Positions 32,075 through 44,115 of a stretch of 64,000 nucleotides of DNA are shown here, piece by piece. Source of the DNA: a virus. Lineage: Duplodnaviria > Caudoviricetes. The notes under the pieces were generated by a model, which did no database searches, was not told the origin of the DNA, and saw only the letters and a list, made by a program, of their open reading frames with translations. Position numbers and translations under genes: made by a program. Position 1 is the first letter of the stretch. Each line of letters opens with the position of its first letter. Location: the IMG/VR virus record IMGVR_UViG_3300031998_000004; one strand, given 5' to 3'.

Positions 32075-32082
32075 ATATGAAA

Positions 32083-32198
32083 AAGAATAGTGTTTTCTCC
32101 TTTATCTTATCACAACGCTATCTCAAGCGAACTATCCCTGATCAGTCTGACTCCTTGCTGTGTCGGGAGGTGGTTGTCGATCCACCATCTCTATTCTT
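32083..32198 (-). ncRNA. Unassigned multibranch structured RNA
   Basis: AAGAATAG/CTATTCTT closing helix enclosing GGTGG/CCACC, GAC/GTC and CGCT/AGCG hairpins. Confidence 0.4.
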
Positions 32199-32206
32199 AA
32201 TCGGTT

Positions 32207-33665: not shown

Positions 33666-35306
33666 TTAATAGTCCCAAACATGATAGTCAGTACCACTTA
33701 ATGTCCATCCAGAAACGAGAGCATTGAAGTTAACCACATCACCATCGAATCTAAAGTTGTAGATATACTTATTACTTGCTCCCCAAGATGCTACGTAGTC
33801 AGCATCCTGATCAGCATCCTTACCAGTATTGATTGTTCTAGTGATTTTACGATCGGTAAATACCACATCATCACCACTAGGGTTAGCAATGCAGATATCG
33901 AACACAACAGTGATATTCTGAGGAACCGGCTGGGGGATTACAAGAGAGTTACCAAGTACCACGTGGTCTCCAGTGAAGAGTGTGTCGGTCTGTGCACTTA
34001 CGTAATTGAGAGTAGTGTCTTTCTGTGTACCATACATGGCAGCAGGAGTATCAGTAAGAAGACTTGCAGTAGGAAGACGAAACCATCCATCTACATAAAC
34101 ACCTTCTGAACCGCTTGCGGGCACTGCAGGAACCGCAGCTACACCAGGAACCGCATCGTGATGTTCAATAGTGTGTTGAGGAGCAGCGTTACTATCCCAA
34201 CAGTTAAGACCAACTACTGTATAAGCAGCGCCATTTACAAATGCATCAATAAGAACATAGTCCCAAACATCTGGTTTACCACCACTGTTTGCGGGTTGAA
34301 TGTCATAGCCATTATCCTGAAGATACTTCCATCCATTGAAGAAATGCATAATTTCTCCACCAGTCATCTCAACAGCAAGGTCATACTCGGCTGGGATCGC
34401 CTTGTCTGTTTTTCTGAGTTGTTTGATAACATTGCTAGCCCATACTGTGTTACCCATATGGAGGTCATAGTCACCAGCAGCTCCATTATCAACTGTATAG
34501 TAAGACTTAATCTCTGCAACAAGAGCATCTGGGAGTGGTGCGGCGTTTGTGTAAGCACCCCAAGTATCTCCTTCTTTTACTCTTAATTTAGTTGCTGATG
34601 CAACAGCACTATAGGTCTTCTTAAGGTTTACCCAAGTATCAGTAGTGTCGTCATATGCAGGAACCTCAGGAACTGCAGCAACACCGGGGATAGAATCGCG
34701 ATATTCACCGAAACTGATCTGCTTTACTCGCACCCACTTGATATTAGGATTGATAACCTCACCACGGAACTGAAGCCATGAGAGAGCGTGTCTGAATGTG
34801 AGTTCTACACGTTCGTGCTCTGCACCAACAGCACCATTCTGATGATGATTGTAAGCGGTCTGTGCCCAAAGAACATCATCAAACCCATCGGGATCATCAA
34901 TAAGACTCTGTGTAAGAGCAGGGATATTTAATTTTAATGTATCGTTAACCCACTCAACAGTGTTGTCATACTGTGAGTATGCAGTAAATATAAAGTCGAT
35001 ACCTGTATAGTTATCGGACTTAGGCCAGTAGTAAGGACCACCGACGGCATTACCATCTTTATCATATTCTGCGTTCTTCATAAGATAACCACCGTTCACT
35101 GAAAACTCTCCAGGAACTACATAACCATAAACACCAAAATTGTCCTCCATTGCTGTGGTGTCTACAATAGCTTTAGTAGCAACAGAGGTGCCTGTGTTGA
35201 AGGTAATCTCTGATCTACCGAAGTTTCCGATTGTCATATCTTCCACCTTTGCACATCCGGCAAGGAGAAGCATAGCTGTAAATAAAATTGCAAAAAACTT
35301 TTTCAT
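33666..35306 (-). CDS. Fimbrillin family (type V pilin, Mfa-like) lipoprotein
   Basis: Lipobox LLLAGC, ATKA processing site, YYWP, LTFRHALS, C-terminal KYIYNF..V.GW. Confidence 0.85.
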   Translation of the reverse strand: MKKFFAILFTAMLLLAGCAKVEDMTIGNFGRSEITFNTGTSVATKAIVDTTAMEDNFGVYGYVVPGEFSVNGGYLMKNAEYDKDGNAVGGPYYWPKSDNYTGIDFIFTAYSQYDNTVEWVNDTLKLNIPALTQSLIDDPDGFDDVLWAQTAYNHHQNGAVGAEHERVELTFRHALSWLQFRGEVINPNIKWVRVKQISFGEYRDSIPGVAAVPEVPAYDDTTDTWVNLKKTYSAVASATKLRVKEGDTWGAYTNAAPLPDALVAEIKSYYTVDNGAAGDYDLHMGNTVWASNVIKQLRKTDKAIPAEYDLAVEMTGGEIMHFFNGWKYLQDNGYDIQPANSGGKPDVWDYVLIDAFVNGAAYTVVGLNCWDSNAAPQHTIEHHDAVPGVAAVPAVPASGSEGVYVDGWFRLPTASLLTDTPAAMYGTQKDTTLNYVSAQTDTLFTGDHVVLGNSLVIPQPVPQNITVVFDICIANPSGDDVVFTDRKITRTINTGKDADQDADYVASWGASNKYIYNFRFDGDVVNFNALVSGWTLSGTDYHVWDY

Positions 35307-35336
35307 ACGTAAATTTCTATTCTAATAATTTTTTCA

Positions 35337-36413
35337 TCAAAATACATCATAAGTGTGTTGTTTCCATTCGTTCAAGTCAATCCCGAATGTATTATCTCCT
35401 ACAGGCGTTTCTTTTTTTAATTCGGAGTTAAGAATGATTACTGTTATGACTCCACCTTTAGGATTTTCTTGTAACTGTTTCGTAATGTCTTTTGTACCAG
35501 TGACTTCTCCGTAATTATAAGTATCAACATCTATGTTGGTGTAATAAAGATAGTCAATCTGGGATGTCCAAGAGCTATTAATATCATCAGGCAACAGGTC
35601 CAAAATTGTAACTCGACTAGCAAACACAAGACTATCTGGTGTATGGAACTGCCCTGGTTTAATATCAAAAGTTGATATCTGTTTATTACCTGTCCAGACT
35701 GGGGTGTTTGTGAACATATTCTTTTTTGTTGATATTCCACTCACTGTGAAGTTTACTATGTCTCGAGCCTCAATCAGAGGACTATGATCGTCGTTAACTA
35801 CAATGAACTGAATGACATATATGTATGATACGGGTTCGAGCATTTCATCAATATTATACACATACACGAGTTTTCCATTCTCAATAACCTCTTCAAAATC
35901 TGAGATGTCATTTGAGAGATATATCTCACGTTTATTCATTGCGAACACCTCACCTGGTTGATTCACTGTCTCATACTCATTACTAATAGGATTTCTTGCC
36001 CGTGTGCTCTTTGTAGAAGGAGTTTCCACATAGTATCGCCCACCTTCGTAATAAGTCTCTGTCCAAGGATTATCTTTACTATATATCAACAAGTCATATG
36101 TGTTATTCAATTCAACATCAATGAGTTCCCTCTTTCCTGTCTGTACTCGAGTCTCGGATAAAATCTTTCCCTGATTGAAAATCACAACGTTACATGTTGT
36201 TGGAAGAGTATAAAAGAGTGGTCCATAAAGGTCTTCATCCCAGTTATACTTAAGGGTATCTTGCCATCCTTCCTTCCACATAGCATTGATGTTTGCTTGT
36301 ACCTGTACGTTAATCTTCAATGCAGTGTCTCCTTGGAGGTAGAGAGGTTTGCGCTCACACCCTATGAGTATACTCATTAATAACATTAATCCCAATACAA
36401 CTTTCTTCCACAT
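35337..36413 (-). CDS. DUF5119-like fimbrial accessory lipoprotein
   Basis: Lipobox ILIGC-ERKPL; DIT.QL...GG; FGID...W. Confidence 0.75.
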   Translation of the reverse strand: MWKKVVLGLMLLMSILIGCERKPLYLQGDTALKINVQVQANINAMWKEGWQDTLKYNWDEDLYGPLFYTLPTTCNVVIFNQGKILSETRVQTGKRELIDVELNNTYDLLIYSKDNPWTETYYEGGRYYVETPSTKSTRARNPISNEYETVNQPGEVFAMNKREIYLSNDISDFEEVIENGKLVYVYNIDEMLEPVSYIYVIQFIVVNDDHSPLIEARDIVNFTVSGISTKKNMFTNTPVWTGNKQISTFDIKPGQFHTPDSLVFASRVTILDLLPDDINSSWTSQIDYLYYTNIDVDTYNYGEVTGTKDITKQLQENPKGGVITVIILNSELKKETPVGDNTFGIDLNEWKQHTYDVF

Positions 36414-37624
36414 ATCAAATCAAATGTTAAATTAAATCCAACTTCGGTTGGACCAAAATAGTTCATATTAAATCGTCTTGGAACAAAGTCACTAGCTCGT
36501 AAGTACCAGTTATAATAGTATTTAGTATCCCATGGCTGAGAGGCGTGATAGGCATCAAACCTCGTATTAAACCATCCAATCCGACCATACAACTCAAACT
36601 TCCATCTCGGGTGTTTCTTACATTGGAATACATATCCGTATCCCAATCCACATCCATATACTTCTCCTTGATATCCCAGGTCTTTGTTCCAAGCGCAGAA
36701 GTCATAGATAGCGGTATTTGCATAAACTCCAATCCAATGCCCTGTGTACTTGTTATTAAGATATTTTCGGATACCCGCGATTCCATTCAAGAGTTGATAG
36801 TAGAAGTAACTGTCATAATCCTTATGCCACCAAGGGAACGTATAATCAAACTCAAGACTCAACCCCCACAGGTGTGTGTAGAGTTCTGCTTGGACGTTTG
36901 GTGTGATTGCAAGATCGCTCAAAAGATTCGTTTTAACAGCGAGTATTGGGATAACCTTAAGGTTTGGTCGAATTAGGATTGTATCGCGAAAATAGATAGG
37001 TTTTTGGATGAATATAGTATCGTGTTTGAGCTCGGTTAAGATTATAGTGTCTCTTTCGATTTCTTTCATCACTTCCTTTATCACTACCGTGTCTCTTTCA
37101 ATCTCTTTTATGACTTGTGGATATAAGAAATACACCTTAATATCAATTCTTCTGAGTCGTGGGAAGTACTTTTGATTAAGCTCTTTCCAATAGCCAGACC
37201 GAATAAGATCGTGTTTGACATCGTTGCTTGTAGAGAGAATCTTTAAGATTTTACCCTTCCAAGGTTCATTACTCGCTTCAATCAACTTATACAGCCCATC
37301 ATAGTCTTCCGATATAGTTATCTCGTCATCAAGATTCAATATATCACGAACCGCATCAACACGTCCTTGAGCGAGTGCTCGGTTGCCTGAATAAGTACCT
37401 TCTGGTGAAGCAGTACCTGTGATTTTAATATATTTGATGTCGTCTTGATGTTCTTGGATGAACGGGAGTTGACTATTGACGAACTCTTGATAGTTTTCAT
37501 CCTGGATGAACTCTGTAGTGTTGACTTTGAAGTAAAGTGTTGATGTCACTACGGTATCCCGTTGTTGGCTGTATCCGAGCCAACACATACAAAGTAAGGA
37601 CAATATGAGTAGAAGTCTGCGCAT
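36386..37624 (-). CDS. OmpA-like plus DUF3575 outer-membrane protein (fimbrial anchor/assembly)
   Basis: G.ASPEG...N..LA..R, FPRLRR, AVKTNLL.D, YFGPT. Confidence 0.8.
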   Translation of the reverse strand: MRRLLLILSLLCMCWLGYSQQRDTVVTSTLYFKVNTTEFIQDENYQEFVNSQLPFIQEHQDDIKYIKITGTASPEGTYSGNRALAQGRVDAVRDILNLDDEITISEDYDGLYKLIEASNEPWKGKILKILSTSNDVKHDLIRSGYWKELNQKYFPRLRRIDIKVYFLYPQVIKEIERDTVVIKEVMKEIERDTIILTELKHDTIFIQKPIYFRDTILIRPNLKVIPILAVKTNLLSDLAITPNVQAELYTHLWGLSLEFDYTFPWWHKDYDSYFYYQLLNGIAGIRKYLNNKYTGHWIGVYANTAIYDFCAWNKDLGYQGEVYGCGLGYGYVFQCKKHPRWKFELYGRIGWFNTRFDAYHASQPWDTKYYYNWYLRASDFVPRRFNMNYFGPTEVGFNLTFDLICGRKLYWD

Positions 37625-37665: not shown

Positions 37666-37669
37666 CGCG

Positions 37670-37741
37670 AGCCCCTGAGAAGAATCGAACTCCCATTTGA
37701 TGATTACGAAACATCCGTACTAGCCGTTATACTACAAGGGC
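37670..37741 (-). tRNA. tRNA-Thr(CGT)
   Basis: Cloverleaf, anticodon CGT. Confidence 0.88.
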
Positions 37742-37744
37742 ATT

Positions 37745-37820
37745 TGGTAGCAGTGGAACGACTCGAACGTTCAACCGACAACTTCAGAGGCTGCTGCTCT
37801 ACCAATTGCGCTACACTGCT
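37745..37820 (-). tRNA. tRNA-Gln(CTG)
   Basis: Cloverleaf, anticodon CTG, encoded CCA; acceptor atypical for Gln (A1:U72, A73). Confidence 0.85.
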
Positions 37821-37825
37821 ATCTG

Positions 37826-37899
37826 AGCAATCAACCGGGATCGAACCGATGTCTTATCCATACCAAGGATATGTTCTCGACCTGCTAAACTATGACTGC
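37826..37899 (-). tRNA. tRNA-Thr(GGT)
   Basis: Cloverleaf, TATCC-TT GGT AT-GGATA. Confidence 0.9.
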
Positions 37900-37904
37900 A
37901 TAAA

Positions 37905-38000
37905 ATAGTTGGAAGAGTGTTTGCTATAGACATTGACGATATGTTCTATATAATTTGTCAAAGAGGCTCTTATCGTATATTCGTCTACTATCCTAACTAT
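37905..38000 (-). ncRNA. Unassigned rod-like structured RNA in tRNA array
   Basis: ATAGTT/AACTAT, AAGAG/CTCTT, TTTG/CAAA, TATAGA/TCTATA nested helices. Confidence 0.45.
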
Positions 38001-38003
38001 TTG

Positions 38004-38074
38004 TACCCGGTAGAAGATTCGAACTCCTATGATCAGATCCGTATTCTGAAATCCTTCCATTGAATGAACCGGGC
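38004..38074 (-). tRNA. tRNA-Arg(ACG)
   Basis: TCAGA-AT ACG GA-TCTGA. Confidence 0.9.
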
Positions 38075-38102
38075 ATTAACCTATTGATTATTAATTACTT
38101 AG

Positions 38103-38177
38103 GGAGAAAGACGGGACTCGAACCCGCATAAACTACATCCACAGTGTAGTGCCTAAACCAATTCGGCCACCTCCTCC
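38103..38177 (-). tRNA. tRNA-His(GTG)
   Basis: G-1:C73, CTACA-CT GTG GA-TGTAG. Confidence 0.9.
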
Positions 38178-38183
38178 ATGTAG

Positions 38184-38257
38184 TCGAGAGACCCAGATTC
38201 GAACTGGGATTGGATCGGTATCAGCGATCTAGCCTTGACCTGTTAGCTGATCTCTCG
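38184..38257 (-). tRNA. tRNA-Ile(GAT)
   Basis: GATCG-CT GAT AC-CGATC. Confidence 0.88.
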
Positions 38258-38263
38258 AATTTG

Positions 38264-38335
38264 CAGGAGTTACAGGACTCGAACCCATATCGTTTGATTT
38301 GGAGTCAAAAATGCTAACCATTACACCAAACTCCT
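38264..38335 (-). tRNA. tRNA-Trp(CCA)
   Basis: TTTGA-CT CCA AA-TCAAA, G73. Confidence 0.92.
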
Positions 38336-38361
38336 GTATAACCTATTGATTATCAATGTAG

Positions 38362-38433
38362 TGCAGGTAACCGGAATCGAACCGACATCTCAGGAGTGGA
38401 AGTCCTATACACTAGCCGTTGTGCTATACCTGC
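38362..38433 (-). tRNA. tRNA-Gly(TCC)
   Basis: TAGGA-CT TCC AC-TCCTG. Confidence 0.9.
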
Positions 38434-38443
38434 AATTTATTCG

Positions 38444-38515
38444 AGCAGCATACTGGTAACGCTCCAGCGTCTCGACATTGGCAATGTCGCATAATTACTT
38501 TTATACGAATGCTGC
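38444..38515 (-). tRNA. tRNA-Gly(GCC), non-canonical D/T loops
   Basis: CGACA-TT GCC AA-TGTCG; T-loop AGCGTTA; D-loop lacks GG. Confidence 0.8.
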
Positions 38516-38520
38516 TTAGG

Positions 38521-38606
38521 AGTCTGGGATAGGACTCGAACCTACGTAAGTCATTGACTATCAACGGTTTTGCAGACCGCCTCCTGACCAACTCGGACAC
38601 CCAGAC
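38521..38606 (-). tRNA. tRNA-Cys(GCA) with 18-nt variable region
   Basis: GCGGT-CT GCA AA-ACCGT, U73, variable region TGATAGTCAATGACTTAC. Confidence 0.88.
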
Positions 38607-38610
38607 ATAA

Positions 38611-38624
38611 TATTTCAAAGATCA
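38611..38624 (-). promoter_or_regulatory. boxA-like antitermination element TGATCTTTGAAATA
   Basis: Resembles rrn boxA (TGCTCTTTAACA / GATCTTTGAAA variants); lies between attenuator and first tRNA. Confidence 0.5.
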
Positions 38625-38659
38625 AAAAAAATCACCCGAACTATCTCAGCTCAAGCGAT
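38624..38659 (-). terminator. Attenuator terminator of tRNA array 1
   Basis: ATCGCTTGAGCT-GAGAT-AGTTCGGGTGAT followed by T7. Confidence 0.8.
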
Positions 38660-38694
38660 CTCGTTTTATATGCGTAAAATTATTTTCTGAGACC

Positions 38695-38772
38695 TTACTT
38701 GAGCATAGTAGTGCGACCACACCAACCTTGATGCTGTCCGCGAATACCGATATGTCCAATGTTTGTTCTCAT
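38695..38772 (-). CDS. Putative attenuator leader peptide 1 (MRTNIGHIGIRGQHQGWCGRTTMLK)
   Basis: 25-codon ORF; 17 of codons 5-22 are read by the downstream array; 3' end complementary to terminator 5' arm. Confidence 0.8.
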   Translation of the reverse strand: MRTNIGHIGIRGQHQGWCGRTTMLK

Positions 38773-38803
38773 GTTATTATAATACAAAATATCTCTTAAA
38801 AAT

Positions 38804-39349: not shown

Positions 39350-39784
39350 TTACCATCTTTTCCATTCATCCCAACCACGTTGAGTAACACCTTTCTGATC
39401 CTGAGGAAGAGCACCGCTTTCGTAGAACTCTTTACTTACATGTACTCTTTTTTCTCCATACTTAACTGTATTTAAATACATCCAATACTTATCATCACCA
39501 ATTCTGTATCCTTTGACTGTTCCAAATCCTGGTAGCATGTCTTGCTCTACATCTAGTCCATCAACCTTTTTACAGTAGTTGATGATTCTAGCATAAAGAT
39601 TTCGTCCATCTTTAACTGTTACCGTCGAAGGATTTATCTCATACCACTCTCTACTACTTCCCTGATAGTCACGGCAAAGAGCAACCCCGTCTCCGAAGAA
39701 CTTCTTAATTACATAAGCAAGTTTCTCGGGAACTATTTTACTTTTGACGTTATCTGTAAAGAGACTTTCTTGTAGTGATTTCAT
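39350..39784 (-). CDS. Hypothetical protein, CTS-like N-terminus (MKSLQESLFTDN)
   Basis: ORF track. Confidence 0.75.
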   Translation of the reverse strand: MKSLQESLFTDNVKSKIVPEKLAYVIKKFFGDGVALCRDYQGSSREWYEINPSTVTVKDGRNLYARIINYCKKVDGLDVEQDMLPGFGTVKGYRIGDDKYWMYLNTVKYGEKRVHVSKEFYESGALPQDQKGVTQRGWDEWKRW

Positions 39785-41064
39785 ACTAAACTTTCTTGTA
39801 AGGATTTTGGTTTCATAGTGTATTTACTATAACCAATGATACGGTTGAGTGGAACGAATCCACCAGTCCACTTCATCATCTTGCCTTTATAACTGAATAC
39901 TATACCTTCGGCACTTCTGAGATTCTCTTCACCAATCTCCCTTAAAACATCTAACCACTTCTGTAAGAATTCGTTATCTTCGAGAGAACCTTCCCTTCTG
40001 ATCTTTTCGGTGGCAACTTTCAAATCACCAAGAAGACTCTTGATGGTTCCATCTTGCCCGTCATTAACAAAACCACTGGTCACTTTAATAACATCAGCAC
40101 CCATACTATAGAAGAAATTTTGAAGTGGTGTGAGTACAGTATTAACTACTTTACTAGATGTCTTATCAAGTTTAACAAAACCATCAAGATTATCCTGATA
40201 TATTGCTTTGAGGTCCTTGAGAGATGCAGCTGTCTTATCTCCAAACACCCATCTCCTACAACAATCCATTGCTGCTTTATGATCCTCGCCTAACCACGGT
40301 TCATATTTCTCAACCCATTTAAAGAAGAGACTATATTTGAGACCTTCTATAGTAACATCTGGAGCACAATCGCATTGTTTTAAGAACTTCTGCCACTCAC
40401 CCAACCATTTCTTTTCGAGTTTTGCAGTTTCCTCACTATACTTAATGATAACAGGAGGAGTGATCTTCGCATTGTCGATTCCCTCACAAGCCTTTTCCAA
40501 CACATCTAGTCCTTTCTTGGTTACTTCTGTATTCTTCCATTCACTATCACTTTCTTGTTTTTCGTATATCCATATATTATGAAAGTCTACTTGATCAGAA
40601 GGATAGGGAATAGTATTTGTAGTTCCTGCAAGGATACATTCGCAGTTAACAACAAGTCTCTTAAGGGGCGATGGATTAAACCACTCTGGTCCGATCTTCC
40701 TAAACACAGCTTCAATGATCTTACCACCACGCGTGTAGTTATCAAGAGCATGGGGATTCTCCTTCCATTGTTCTGCAAAATCACTTAATGTCATTCCACC
40801 TTTCTCACTATTGAGATTGGTTTTATTGCGAATGAATACGACATCCCCTTTAGGATTCATACTTGCTTGCATACCAAATCCATCCATCTTCTCTGTCATA
40901 CCTTCCATCTTGCCCCCGAACATGGTACGGATAAGTTCTTCGATATCATATCCAGTAAACTCATCCACATCATATGGATGGAGCATATGTCCACTTGCTC
41001 CACCTTCAAGAACTGGCTCATTAATAGATAGTCTTTCTGTAAAATATTGTGAAAAGTGTTTCAT
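39781..41064 (-). CDS. DUF6267-like protein with ligase/nucleotidyltransferase-like motifs
   Basis: EGGA.GHM.HP.D, TEKMDG (KxDG), EGIV, K.TG.F.P.N.I. Confidence 0.6.
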   Translation of the reverse strand: MKHFSQYFTERLSINEPVLEGGASGHMLHPYDVDEFTGYDIEELIRTMFGGKMEGMTEKMDGFGMQASMNPKGDVVFIRNKTNLNSEKGGMTLSDFAEQWKENPHALDNYTRGGKIIEAVFRKIGPEWFNPSPLKRLVVNCECILAGTTNTIPYPSDQVDFHNIWIYEKQESDSEWKNTEVTKKGLDVLEKACEGIDNAKITPPVIIKYSEETAKLEKKWLGEWQKFLKQCDCAPDVTIEGLKYSLFFKWVEKYEPWLGEDHKAAMDCCRRWVFGDKTAASLKDLKAIYQDNLDGFVKLDKTSSKVVNTVLTPLQNFFYSMGADVIKVTSGFVNDGQDGTIKSLLGDLKVATEKIRREGSLEDNEFLQKWLDVLREIGEENLRSAEGIVFSYKGKMMKWTGGFVPLNRIIGYSKYTMKPKSLQESLV

Positions 41065-42160: not shown

Positions 42161-42664
42161 CTATTTCTTCACAACCCAGTCAGCAAGAGTAGTGATAAGA
42201 GGACCGAAGGTCTTATAACGAACCTCGAATCCATATGACTCAAGCCATCCCTTTGAAGAAGCATAAGCTACATTGGAGCCAGCGTCTTCACGTGGGTTGA
42301 TATCAATGTCTATGTAACGGACAGGAACACCGCTTTCACGAATCCTCATGGCGACATCAAGTGATGCCTGCGTCTCAGCAGTCATTCTATCGAAGATTTC
42401 GGTCTTCTTGTAGCGTCTGGTCTTCCAACGACTGAACACACAGTGAGCGCCGTGCCCGTGTCCATCCCCATCACCTTTGTCATACATAGCGACTATAGTT
42501 GAGAATACAGTGTATGGTCCTTTGTTCTGTGAGTCGGTTCCAACCATCACATCAATATTCTGGTGGGTACTGTAGTACTCTTTCACATACTGCTCAATGT
42601 TGTCTAGCTTCTCTCCAGTAAACTTCTTAAATGAGAAAGCTCCATTTATCTTCTCTTGTTCCAT
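42161..42664 (-). CDS. RNase H-like YkuK/DUF458 family protein
   Basis: VGTDSQ, R...E...S, IDIDIN, AD. Confidence 0.8.
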   Translation of the reverse strand: MEQEKINGAFSFKKFTGEKLDNIEQYVKEYYSTHQNIDVMVGTDSQNKGPYTVFSTIVAMYDKGDGDGHGHGAHCVFSRWKTRRYKKTEIFDRMTAETQASLDVAMRIRESGVPVRYIDIDINPREDAGSNVAYASSKGWLESYGFEVRYKTFGPLITTLADWVVKK

Positions 42665-43449: not shown

Positions 43450-43478
43450 AAAAAAGAGCTGCATCTTTTGTGCAACTC
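43450..43478 (-). terminator. Attenuator terminator of Ser/Leu tRNA unit
   Basis: GAGTTGCA-CAAAAGA-TGCAGCTC followed by T6. Confidence 0.8.
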
Positions 43479-43511
43479 CGAAAAAAATCACTCGTATACT
43501 AAATTGCACAA

Positions 43512-43577
43512 CTAACCGATAGTCCTATCGAGAGAACTACTCAATGACAATTCAATATTCGCATATGTTCTTTTCAT
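43512..43577 (-). CDS. Putative attenuator leader peptide 2 (MKRTYANIELSLSSSLDRTIG)
   Basis: Codons 10-15 TTG TCA TTG AGT AGT TCT match downstream Leu(CAA)/Ser tRNAs; TTGTGCAATTT after the stop pairs with terminator 5' arm. Confidence 0.75.
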   Translation of the reverse strand: MKRTYANIELSLSSSLDRTIG

Positions 43578-43689: not shown

Positions 43690-44115
43690 CGGAAGGTAAG
43701 AGATTCGAACTCCTGGGCCGCTCACGCGACCAACGGTTTTCCTTACACACATTCCTTTCGGATCGTGGTCTGGACTCTATCTTAACCATATTGAAATCTT
43801 GCAAGATACCTTTAGCAGTGTTCCAATACACTATATTAATTCGGACTGGATTTCTTTTTAACCGAACTAAAGATAATTTCAACTTAGGTTCCTCCTGTAT
43901 AGTCTCTACACACTGTCTAACTTATCGGTCTCACTACGTCAAGCTGGGAATTACTCCAACTCCGGACTTAAAAGTTTTAACATTGGCTCGGTATTACCAT
44001 CAGCATTACCTGTTAAGGTTCTACCGAATTAGGGAGGTTCTACTTCTTTTCTTTCAAAAAGAGCACTCGAATTAAAAATCAAGACCGCCGCTTTAGACCA
44101 CTCAGCCAACCTTCC
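43690..44115 (-). tRNA. tRNA-Ser(TGA) interrupted by group I intron
   Basis: Exons 44115-44081 and 43741-43690 reconstitute GCGGT-CT TGA AA-ACCGT, long variable arm, G73. Confidence 0.88.
43742..44080 (-). mobile_element. Group I self-splicing intron (339 nt, no ORF) inserted after anticodon U34
   Basis: P AATTCGGTAGAAC, Q AATACCGAGC, R GTAGAGACTA, S AAGATAGAGTCC; P1 U.G pair at 5' splice site; terminal G. Confidence 0.88.

Follow-up and report, generated by a model that had tools for sequence, protein, structure and literature searches.

A short open reading frame (ORF) that lies just ahead of ten phage tRNA genes, together with the RNA structures that overlap and follow it, is likely a multivalent ribosome-mediated transcription attenuator controlling the tRNA operon downstream, a conclusion that we draw without transcript or ribosome data. 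The element, here called leader 1, takes up about 150 nt of the window, that is, the whole 64,000-nt stretch of viral DNA that we analysed (Table 1). What our analysis demonstrates is the match between the leader codons and the array, its conservation, the alternative RNA structures, the geometry of a switch in silico, and array-specific matching across phages. The criteria for an attenuator are met in that there is a translatable ORF with cognate codons, a terminator, an antiterminator (segments 2:3) that excludes it, and a switch that depends on the position of the ribosome, the last in silico only.

Table 1. Features of leader 1, the tRNA array behind it, and leader 2 (window positions). 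Counts over 12 sequences refer to leader 1 plus eleven orthologs.
Feature	Positions	Strand	Basis or remark
AT-rich promoter-like and/or translation-initiation region	38773..38789	-	directly 5' of ATG; A at -3 in 12/12, at -6 in 11/12
Leader ORF 1, 25 aa + stop (26 codons)	38695..38772	-	start, frame and stop kept in 11 orthologs; indels are multiples of 3
Segment 1, 5' part of ORF, predicted protector pairing with segment 2 without a ribosome	38751..38771	-	MFE fold, duplex energy
Control codons 5-19 (Ile, Gly, His, Arg, Gln, Trp, Cys), effective sensing zone	38716..38760	-	in-set ortholog codons and masking switch
Inner hairpin over codons 13-18	38719..38734	-	95.5% of cells paired, one-sided changes only
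Segment 2, antiterminator arm over last codons and stop, core GCTCAAGT at 38704-38697	38689..38709	-	2:3 hairpin, 94% paired
Segment 3, terminator 5' arm, also used by antiterminator	38649..38662	-	folding
Segment 4, terminator 3' arm and U tract	38624..38642	-	99% of cells paired
boxA-like word GATCTTTGAAAT	38612..38623	-	between terminator and first tRNA
Regulated tRNA array (array 1)	37669..38606	-	ARAGORN and Rfam
Leader 2 unit (ORF, complementary segment, terminator)	43455..43577	-	Leu(TTG)/Ser run before Ser/Leu tRNAs

The virus record comprises 239,809 bases, is rated 100% complete, and has a GC content of 37%. It contains about 40 tRNA genes, which form four blocks and are encoded on the minus strand without exception. 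The phage encodes a tail sheath whose nearest relatives in GenBank, at 25-32% identity, belong to an uncultured 462-kb phage, the Tenacibaculum phages pT24 and PTm1, PAU, and the Lak phages. Directly 3' of the ten-tRNA array, and in synteny with it in most relatives, are DUF3575/OmpA and Mfa-like fimbrial genes of Bacteroidales type (window 33666-37624, minus strand). From the tail-sheath relatives and these neighbours, we infer that the host is likely a member of the Bacteroidota. No RNA polymerase beta subunit was found in the phage genome, yet two sigma-70-region-2 proteins are encoded there, which argues for transcription by the host RNA polymerase. Array 1 carries, in order, Cys-GCA, Gly-GCC, Gly-TCC, Trp-CCA, Ile-GAT, His-GTG, Arg-ACG, Thr-GGT, Gln-CTG, and Thr-CGT. 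ARAGORN called nine of these; the Gly(GCC) tRNA at 38515-38444, which it missed, was detected by Rfam (41.7 bits) and is called Gly(gcc) in orthologs.

The preliminary description, made from sequence alone, had spelled out the ORF codon by codon, counted ten tRNAs downstream with nine of them covered, and reported that 17 of the 18 codons from 5 to 22 belong to the array. The sequence, which lies at 38772-38695 on the minus strand, held exactly, and so did the counts, the tenth tRNA being the one that needs Rfam; the tRNA left uncovered is Thr-CGT, for which leader 1 has no ACG. The tRNAs of array 1 read 18 sense codons, equivalent to 22.6% of phage codon usage, and a binomial test of the 17 matches against genome codon usage gives p = 1.4e-10. 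This value covers a window of codons that was chosen after the fact. When the whole ORF is taken without selection, 17 of about 24 codons are in the set, with p of ~2e-6 by codon and 2e-7 by amino acid. Moreover, no other of the ~204,000 stop-free 18-codon windows in the six frames of the genome reaches 17/18, and the best unrelated one has 14/18. The control codons are dispersed, with Trp and Cys present once each and no tandem runs, so that shortage of a single tRNA may stall the ribosome only weakly. Isoacceptor choice in the control zone also tends to follow the array, with ATT/ATC preferred over ATA and CGC over AGA (p ~0.01); we regard matching at this level as only suggestive and not decisive. 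An assembly error can be set aside, since eight further contigs that encode an identical neighbouring protein have an identical leader.

Orthologous loci, eleven in number, were gathered by means of a neighbouring 180-aa gene and a degenerate pattern; two of them (L087 and L093) are nearly identical. As bait, the phage's RNase H-like gene retrieved distant phages and was rejected, while BLASTn against GenBank phages returned single tRNAs only. All eleven orthologs retain the ATG, the frame (insertions come in multiples of three), the stop (TAA or TGA), and the terminator. Among the nine gap-free leaders, 27 of the 28 distinct codons found at positions 5-19 lie within the array set (counting CAA as a member), compared with 2/8 at positions 2-4 and 7/13 at positions 20-22. 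The substitutions at codons 5-19 include changes of amino acid (R/C, H/R, G/C). The single codon that had been named as an exception, CAA, is not a true one, because array 1 of the relatives contains Gln(TTG), which is present in all ten orthologous arrays long enough to check. In the studied genome, Gln-TTG is found in the large array outside the window (genome 39755-39826, minus strand), where a tRNA called Ser(TGA) by ARAGORN is better read as Gln(TTG). The re-read tRNA shares its acceptor-stem ends with Gln-TTG in the relatives' array 1, and the leader of the large array contains a CAA.

Conservation extends to the region directly upstream of the start codon, where the A residues at -3 and -6 are known to favour translation initiation in Bacteroidota (PMC6847099). 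In L088, the DNA immediately upstream of leader 1 has gained a citrate synthase gene (L088:8550-9830), which is oriented in the other direction. The AT-rich upstream motif is kept there despite the insertion, which suggests that leader 1 has its own promoter.

The terminator stem occupies 38659-38631 and is followed by a run of eight T to 38624, where seven had been counted before. Across 11 sequences the stem is 99% paired, with seven further pair types and two pairs showing double-sided change, although these covariation counts are inflated by relatedness. Pairing between 38709-38689 and 38662-38640, which the preliminary description had proposed to sequester the 5' arm of the terminator, proved exact in its coordinates and has a duplex energy of -20.9 kcal/mol. 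In leader 1, the 2:3 hairpin has an energy of -16.0 kcal/mol versus -15.9 kcal/mol for the terminator, and in each of the 12 sequences the two lie within ~4 kcal/mol of each other. The 2:3 duplex is also stronger than that formed by shuffled segment 2 in 12/12 sequences (p at most 0.018). Column-wise covariation is absent from the antiterminator core in the 11 sequences examined, because the core is nearly invariant in 10 of them. In L096, segments 2 and 3 have both been replaced by new sequences that still pair (-21.9 vs -20.1 kcal/mol).

Less of the earlier proposal survived for the RNA without a ribosome. A 1:2 protector built from AGCAT/ATGCT and GTGGT/ACTAC was half supported, with 93% versus 73% paired over 11 sequences; we rejected GTGGT/ACTAC as a conserved element, and neither helix occurs in the predicted fold. 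The model instead predicts a protector formed by the 5' end of the ORF, in which codons 1-8 pair with segment 2 around the inner hairpin at codons 13-18. For each of the 12 sequences, the segment 1/segment 2 duplex comes out at -10 to -21 kcal/mol, a lower energy than most shuffles give, and its helix is 91% paired; it is predicted in 12/12 but lacks column covariation. The inner hairpin might act as a pause site, although this is only an inference.

To relate these structures to translation, we folded the RNA with a ribosome mask that covers up to 13 nt from the P site; a 16-nt mask shifts the profile by one codon. For leader 1, the probability of the terminator is 0.90 without a ribosome, 0.00-0.26 when codons 2-17 are in the A site, 0.36-0.86 at codons 18-20, and 0.90-0.97 at codons 21-26. 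A synonymous change in segment 2 abolishes the in silico switch, which survives in only 1 of 150 shuffles of that segment. The claim that a ribosome at the stop leads to termination and one stalled earlier to read-through therefore held in masked folding of leader 1, while function in cells is untested. Within the matching stretch (codons 5-22), the effective sensing zone is roughly codons 5-19, and the two Thr codons (21-22) fall outside it, because a ribosome waiting there already covers the antiterminator. That the switch point (codons 18-21) coincides with the end of codon conservation is an independent agreement between the two analyses.

A terminator favoured regardless of masking, the outcome that had been named as refuting the switch, was not seen for leader 1. 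It was seen in five orthologs (L064, L088, L089, L092, L096), in which the terminator wins wherever the ribosome is placed when the full-length RNA is folded at equilibrium. When the transcripts of these five were truncated before the 3' arm, capture of segment 3 was 0.6-0.98 for early stalls and 0-0.3 at the stop. Their switch thus needs co-transcriptional folding, and in most orthologs it is clear only on the truncated transcript. Escherichia coli controls run through the same pipeline (NC_000913.3) behaved comparably: pheL resembles leader 1, thrL and trpL switch on the truncated transcript, and hisL switches only weakly. We rejected full-length equilibrium folding as a sole test, as thrL, hisL, and trpL of E. 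coli fail it too.

An argument can be made that the peptide, and not its codons, is what matters. The cores G-H-I-G and Q-G-W-C-G are strongly conserved, and the terminal M-L-K is invariant in 11/12 sequences, as might be expected if some ligand or condition led the nascent peptide itself to arrest the ribosome, as TnaC does, and this arrest set the terminator switch. We consider this very unlikely. The M-L-K codons form the antiterminator arm, which explains their invariance, and the C terminus differs in L096. Furthermore, substitutions in leader 1 follow the codon set of the array, and the leaders of other arrays share its logic of composition without sharing its sequence.

Attenuation by codon content is also supported by the other tRNA arrays of the genome. 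Leader 2 consists of a 21-aa ORF with a Leu(TTG)/Ser run (43577-43512), a complementary segment (43511-43504), and a terminator (43479-43455), and stands before array 2, which comprises four Ser tRNAs and Leu-CAA (43066-42077). Its place in L064 and L093 is taken by an unrelated Ser/Leu-rich leader. Leader 3 (genome 46170-46105) precedes the large block for Pro, Phe, Glu, Leu, Tyr, Arg, Lys, Asp, Asn, Ala, and Val. None of the 20 codons of leader 3 belongs to array 1, and none of 23 in leader 1 belongs to array 2. In swap tests, which use amino acids exclusive to one array and array contents taken from ARAGORN calls with some manual corrections, the matching is significant for leaders 1 vs 3 (p = 2e-6), 1 vs 2 (p = 0.003), and 2 vs 3 (p = 0.03). 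Spacing alone is not decisive, since five of the 31 strong terminators in the genome have a short ORF at a comparable distance, leaders 1 and 3 included; the codon match is what sets these leaders apart. No codon-matched leader precedes the fourth array (32074-31546), which consists of three CAT tRNAs and Arg-TCT, and the element upstream of it is common only to L064. That structured-looking element (window 32080-32200, minus strand) has complementary ends and an internal hairpin, with no Rfam match and no codon-matched ORF.

These comparisons bear on the possibility that the attenuator senses a general slowing of ribosomes, whether through infection stage, host shut-off, or translation stress, and that the codon match is secondary. 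In its favour, the identity of the codon makes no difference in silico, where the terminator is opened by every stall that precedes codon 18, and the control codons are dispersed without runs. However, a general sensor would have no need for each array's leader to hold its own, mutually exclusive vocabulary, nor for substitutions to be kept inside the array set. We therefore regard it as unlikely and favour sensing of the cognate codons.

Matched leaders are not confined to close relatives. Among distant jumbo phages in IMG/VR, swap tests support matching in G011 (p = 2e-6), G001 (p = 7e-4), and G005 (p = 0.02), and matched leaders with terminators are also found in Lak-A1 (MK250015; p = 1e-3), Lak-B1 (MK250020; p = 4e-4), and LR756500 (p = 5e-6). 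In G007, where a single array covers nearly all amino acids, a 43-aa leader contains all twenty by hand count. The first leader of G003 lacks I, E, Y, D, N, A, and T; from these gaps a second, internal leader was predicted and then found, directly 5' of a block for Ile, Glu, Tyr, Asp, Gln, Asn, Ala, and Thr. Seventeen of its codons 2-19 encode those amino acids, although the U tail of its hairpin is weak. The feature is not universal, given that inspection of the tRNA arrays of L011-L018 revealed no evident leader or terminator and that no such leader was found before the arrays of PAU and pT24. Among the phages examined, we found no cultured carrier of a codon-matched tRNA leader.

Between the U tract and tRNA-Cys there are only ~17 nt. 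A TCTTTG core is found in this spacer in 12/12 sequences, and the length of the spacer is otherwise variable. The same boxA-like word follows tRNA-Ala in Bacteroidota genomes, and at one such locus, in Segatella copri (L160), the site was shown to be the 16S-23S spacer, which is the usual position of boxA. The spacer thus has what an rrn-type site calls for, a boxA word where a stable-RNA transcript begins. It is possible that a polymerase that reads through is converted to an rrn-type antiterminated complex, but this is inferred by analogy with E. coli rrn, and there are no data on NusB/NusE binding or Rho protection. A second boxA-like word lies between Arg-ACG and Thr-GGT (window 37920-37990, minus strand), in a segment with inverted-repeat character.

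The spacer also constrains a further alternative, namely that leader 1 encodes a small functional peptide followed by a constitutive terminator, with the tRNAs expressed from a separate promoter or by means of a protein that drives antitermination at the boxA-like word. Across orthologs, the peptide shows good conservation with few synonymous changes, longer AT-rich spacers after the terminator in distant phages could hold a second promoter, and the phage encodes the two sigma-70-region-2 proteins. Nevertheless, this reading appears very unlikely. The Bacteroidota promoter element has the consensus TAnnTTTG, which occurs in none of the 12 spacers, and with ~17 nt available a second sigma-A promoter is unsupported. 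In each of the 12 sequences, shuffled controls pair less strongly than 2:3 does, and the equivalent place before other arrays holds unrelated peptides.

We favour attenuation, for which translation of the leader, transcription-translation coupling (including in Bacteroidota), termination in cells, and the signal are all inferred. Host RNA polymerase would transcribe the leader with a ribosome translating behind it. Given an ample supply of charged tRNAs for Ile, Gly, His, Arg(CGN), Gln, Trp, and Cys, the ribosome would reach codon 21 or beyond and cover segment 2, the 3:4 terminator would form, and transcription would stop near 38624. Without a ribosome, segment 1 would hold segment 2 and the terminator would form too. 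A ribosome lingering at codons 5-19 would instead leave segment 2 to capture the 5' arm of the terminator, and the polymerase, having read through, may enter a boxA-type antitermination complex and transcribe the ten tRNAs. These would relieve the stall, closing a negative feedback loop.

The product of the operon is tRNA and not an enzyme of amino-acid metabolism, which makes a shortage of functional tRNA, through cleavage by host defences or the heavy demand of infection, the likeliest signal. In addition, making more tRNA would end a stall only where tRNA is the limiting factor, a point in favour of loss or overload of tRNA as the signal. The isoacceptor choice in the control zone points in that direction too, without deciding the matter. 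In our judgement, such an inferred shortage has a modest edge over plain amino-acid starvation. A bolder reading, towards which the evidence does not quite carry us, is that jumbo and megaphages of Bacteroidota split the genetic code among tRNA operons, each with a codon-matched attenuator, and that these form a panel that senses which host tRNAs anti-phage anticodon nucleases are destroying and replenishes only the block concerned. If so, it would constitute an inducible counter-defence, and leader codons would reveal which tRNAs host immunity attacks.

It is still an open question why tRNAs are carried by phages and how their expression is regulated. Previous studies have shown that the tRNA-Tyr of T5/SP15 counters retron Eco7 and that tRNA-Lys counters PrrC (PMC11555353), while SegB of T6 amplifies tRNA-Tyr against Septu (PMC13096335). 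In both cases, whether a phage escapes the tRNA-cleaving defence depends on its tRNA dose (PMC11555353, PMC13096335), which offers a reason for control on demand. In those systems, however, tRNA is raised by a strong promoter or by gene amplification, and attenuation of tRNA genes is not described in PMC11555353. Nor did we find attenuators on tRNA genes in the literature that we searched, which mostly excluded subscription journals and included two Lak papers and a survey of viral tRNA clusters.

The closest parallels are the attenuators of enterobacteria (E. coli trpL, hisL, pheL, and thrL, and the multivalent thrL and ilvL). They share with leader 1 a short ORF with cognate control codons, a four-segment 1:2 / 2:3 / 3:4 layout, an intrinsic terminator before the first gene, and, for thrL, trpL, and pheL, the masked-folding profile. 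Their targets are enzymes, whereas here the proposed targets are tRNAs in a phage. They also respond to one to three amino acids through runs of codons, compared with seven or eight at once through dispersed codons, and do not divide the genetic code among several parallel attenuators as this genome would. In E. coli, the leader-peptide attenuator pheM controls pheST. Like leader 1, it acts on the supply chain of translation via charged tRNA, but its target is the synthetase for one amino acid, encoded on a bacterial chromosome, and not tRNA genes. T-box riboswitches likewise sense tRNA charging and switch a terminator, but bind uncharged tRNA directly without translation; a T-box was rejected here, as Rfam returned no match to one, either at the gathering threshold or with E relaxed to 1. 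As far as our search of the literature reaches, there is no precedent for tRNA operons as the target, for the phage setting, or for so broad a range of codons. If confirmed, our reading would extend textbook leader-peptide attenuation to a new class of targets, tRNA genes, and would mean that phages keep track of the charged tRNA available in an infected cell and adjust their response one block at a time. The occurrence of such elements in Lak megaphages of gut Prevotella and several other jumbo phages indicates that leader 1 is not a one-off.

Leaders that predict the content of their arrays could also help to annotate odd or intron-split phage tRNAs. A tRNA-Ser(TGA) in the window (43690-44115, minus strand) is split by a group I intron (Rfam RF00028, 34.3 bits, below the gathering score), and a similar intron interrupts a Lys(TTT) tRNA at genome ~39830-40450. 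Outside the window, the tRNA at genome 45766-45839 (minus strand) is called an ochre suppressor (TTA) by ARAGORN and reads in another register as Lys(TTT) with C33. ARAGORN also places a CTA-anticodon, amber-reading tRNA near the Ser array in L083, L086, L091, and L096, but not in the window. The RNase H-like gene (PF04308; window 42161-42664, minus strand) sits within the Ser/Leu array and is also found inside the tRNA arrays of the unrelated phages L011-L021, and may be tied to tRNA handling. Finally, a 427-aa ORF between two tRNA arrays (window 39781-41064, minus strand) has a weak match to RNA ligases (PF09414, E 6.5e-4, below the cut-off) and could conceivably serve in tRNA repair.
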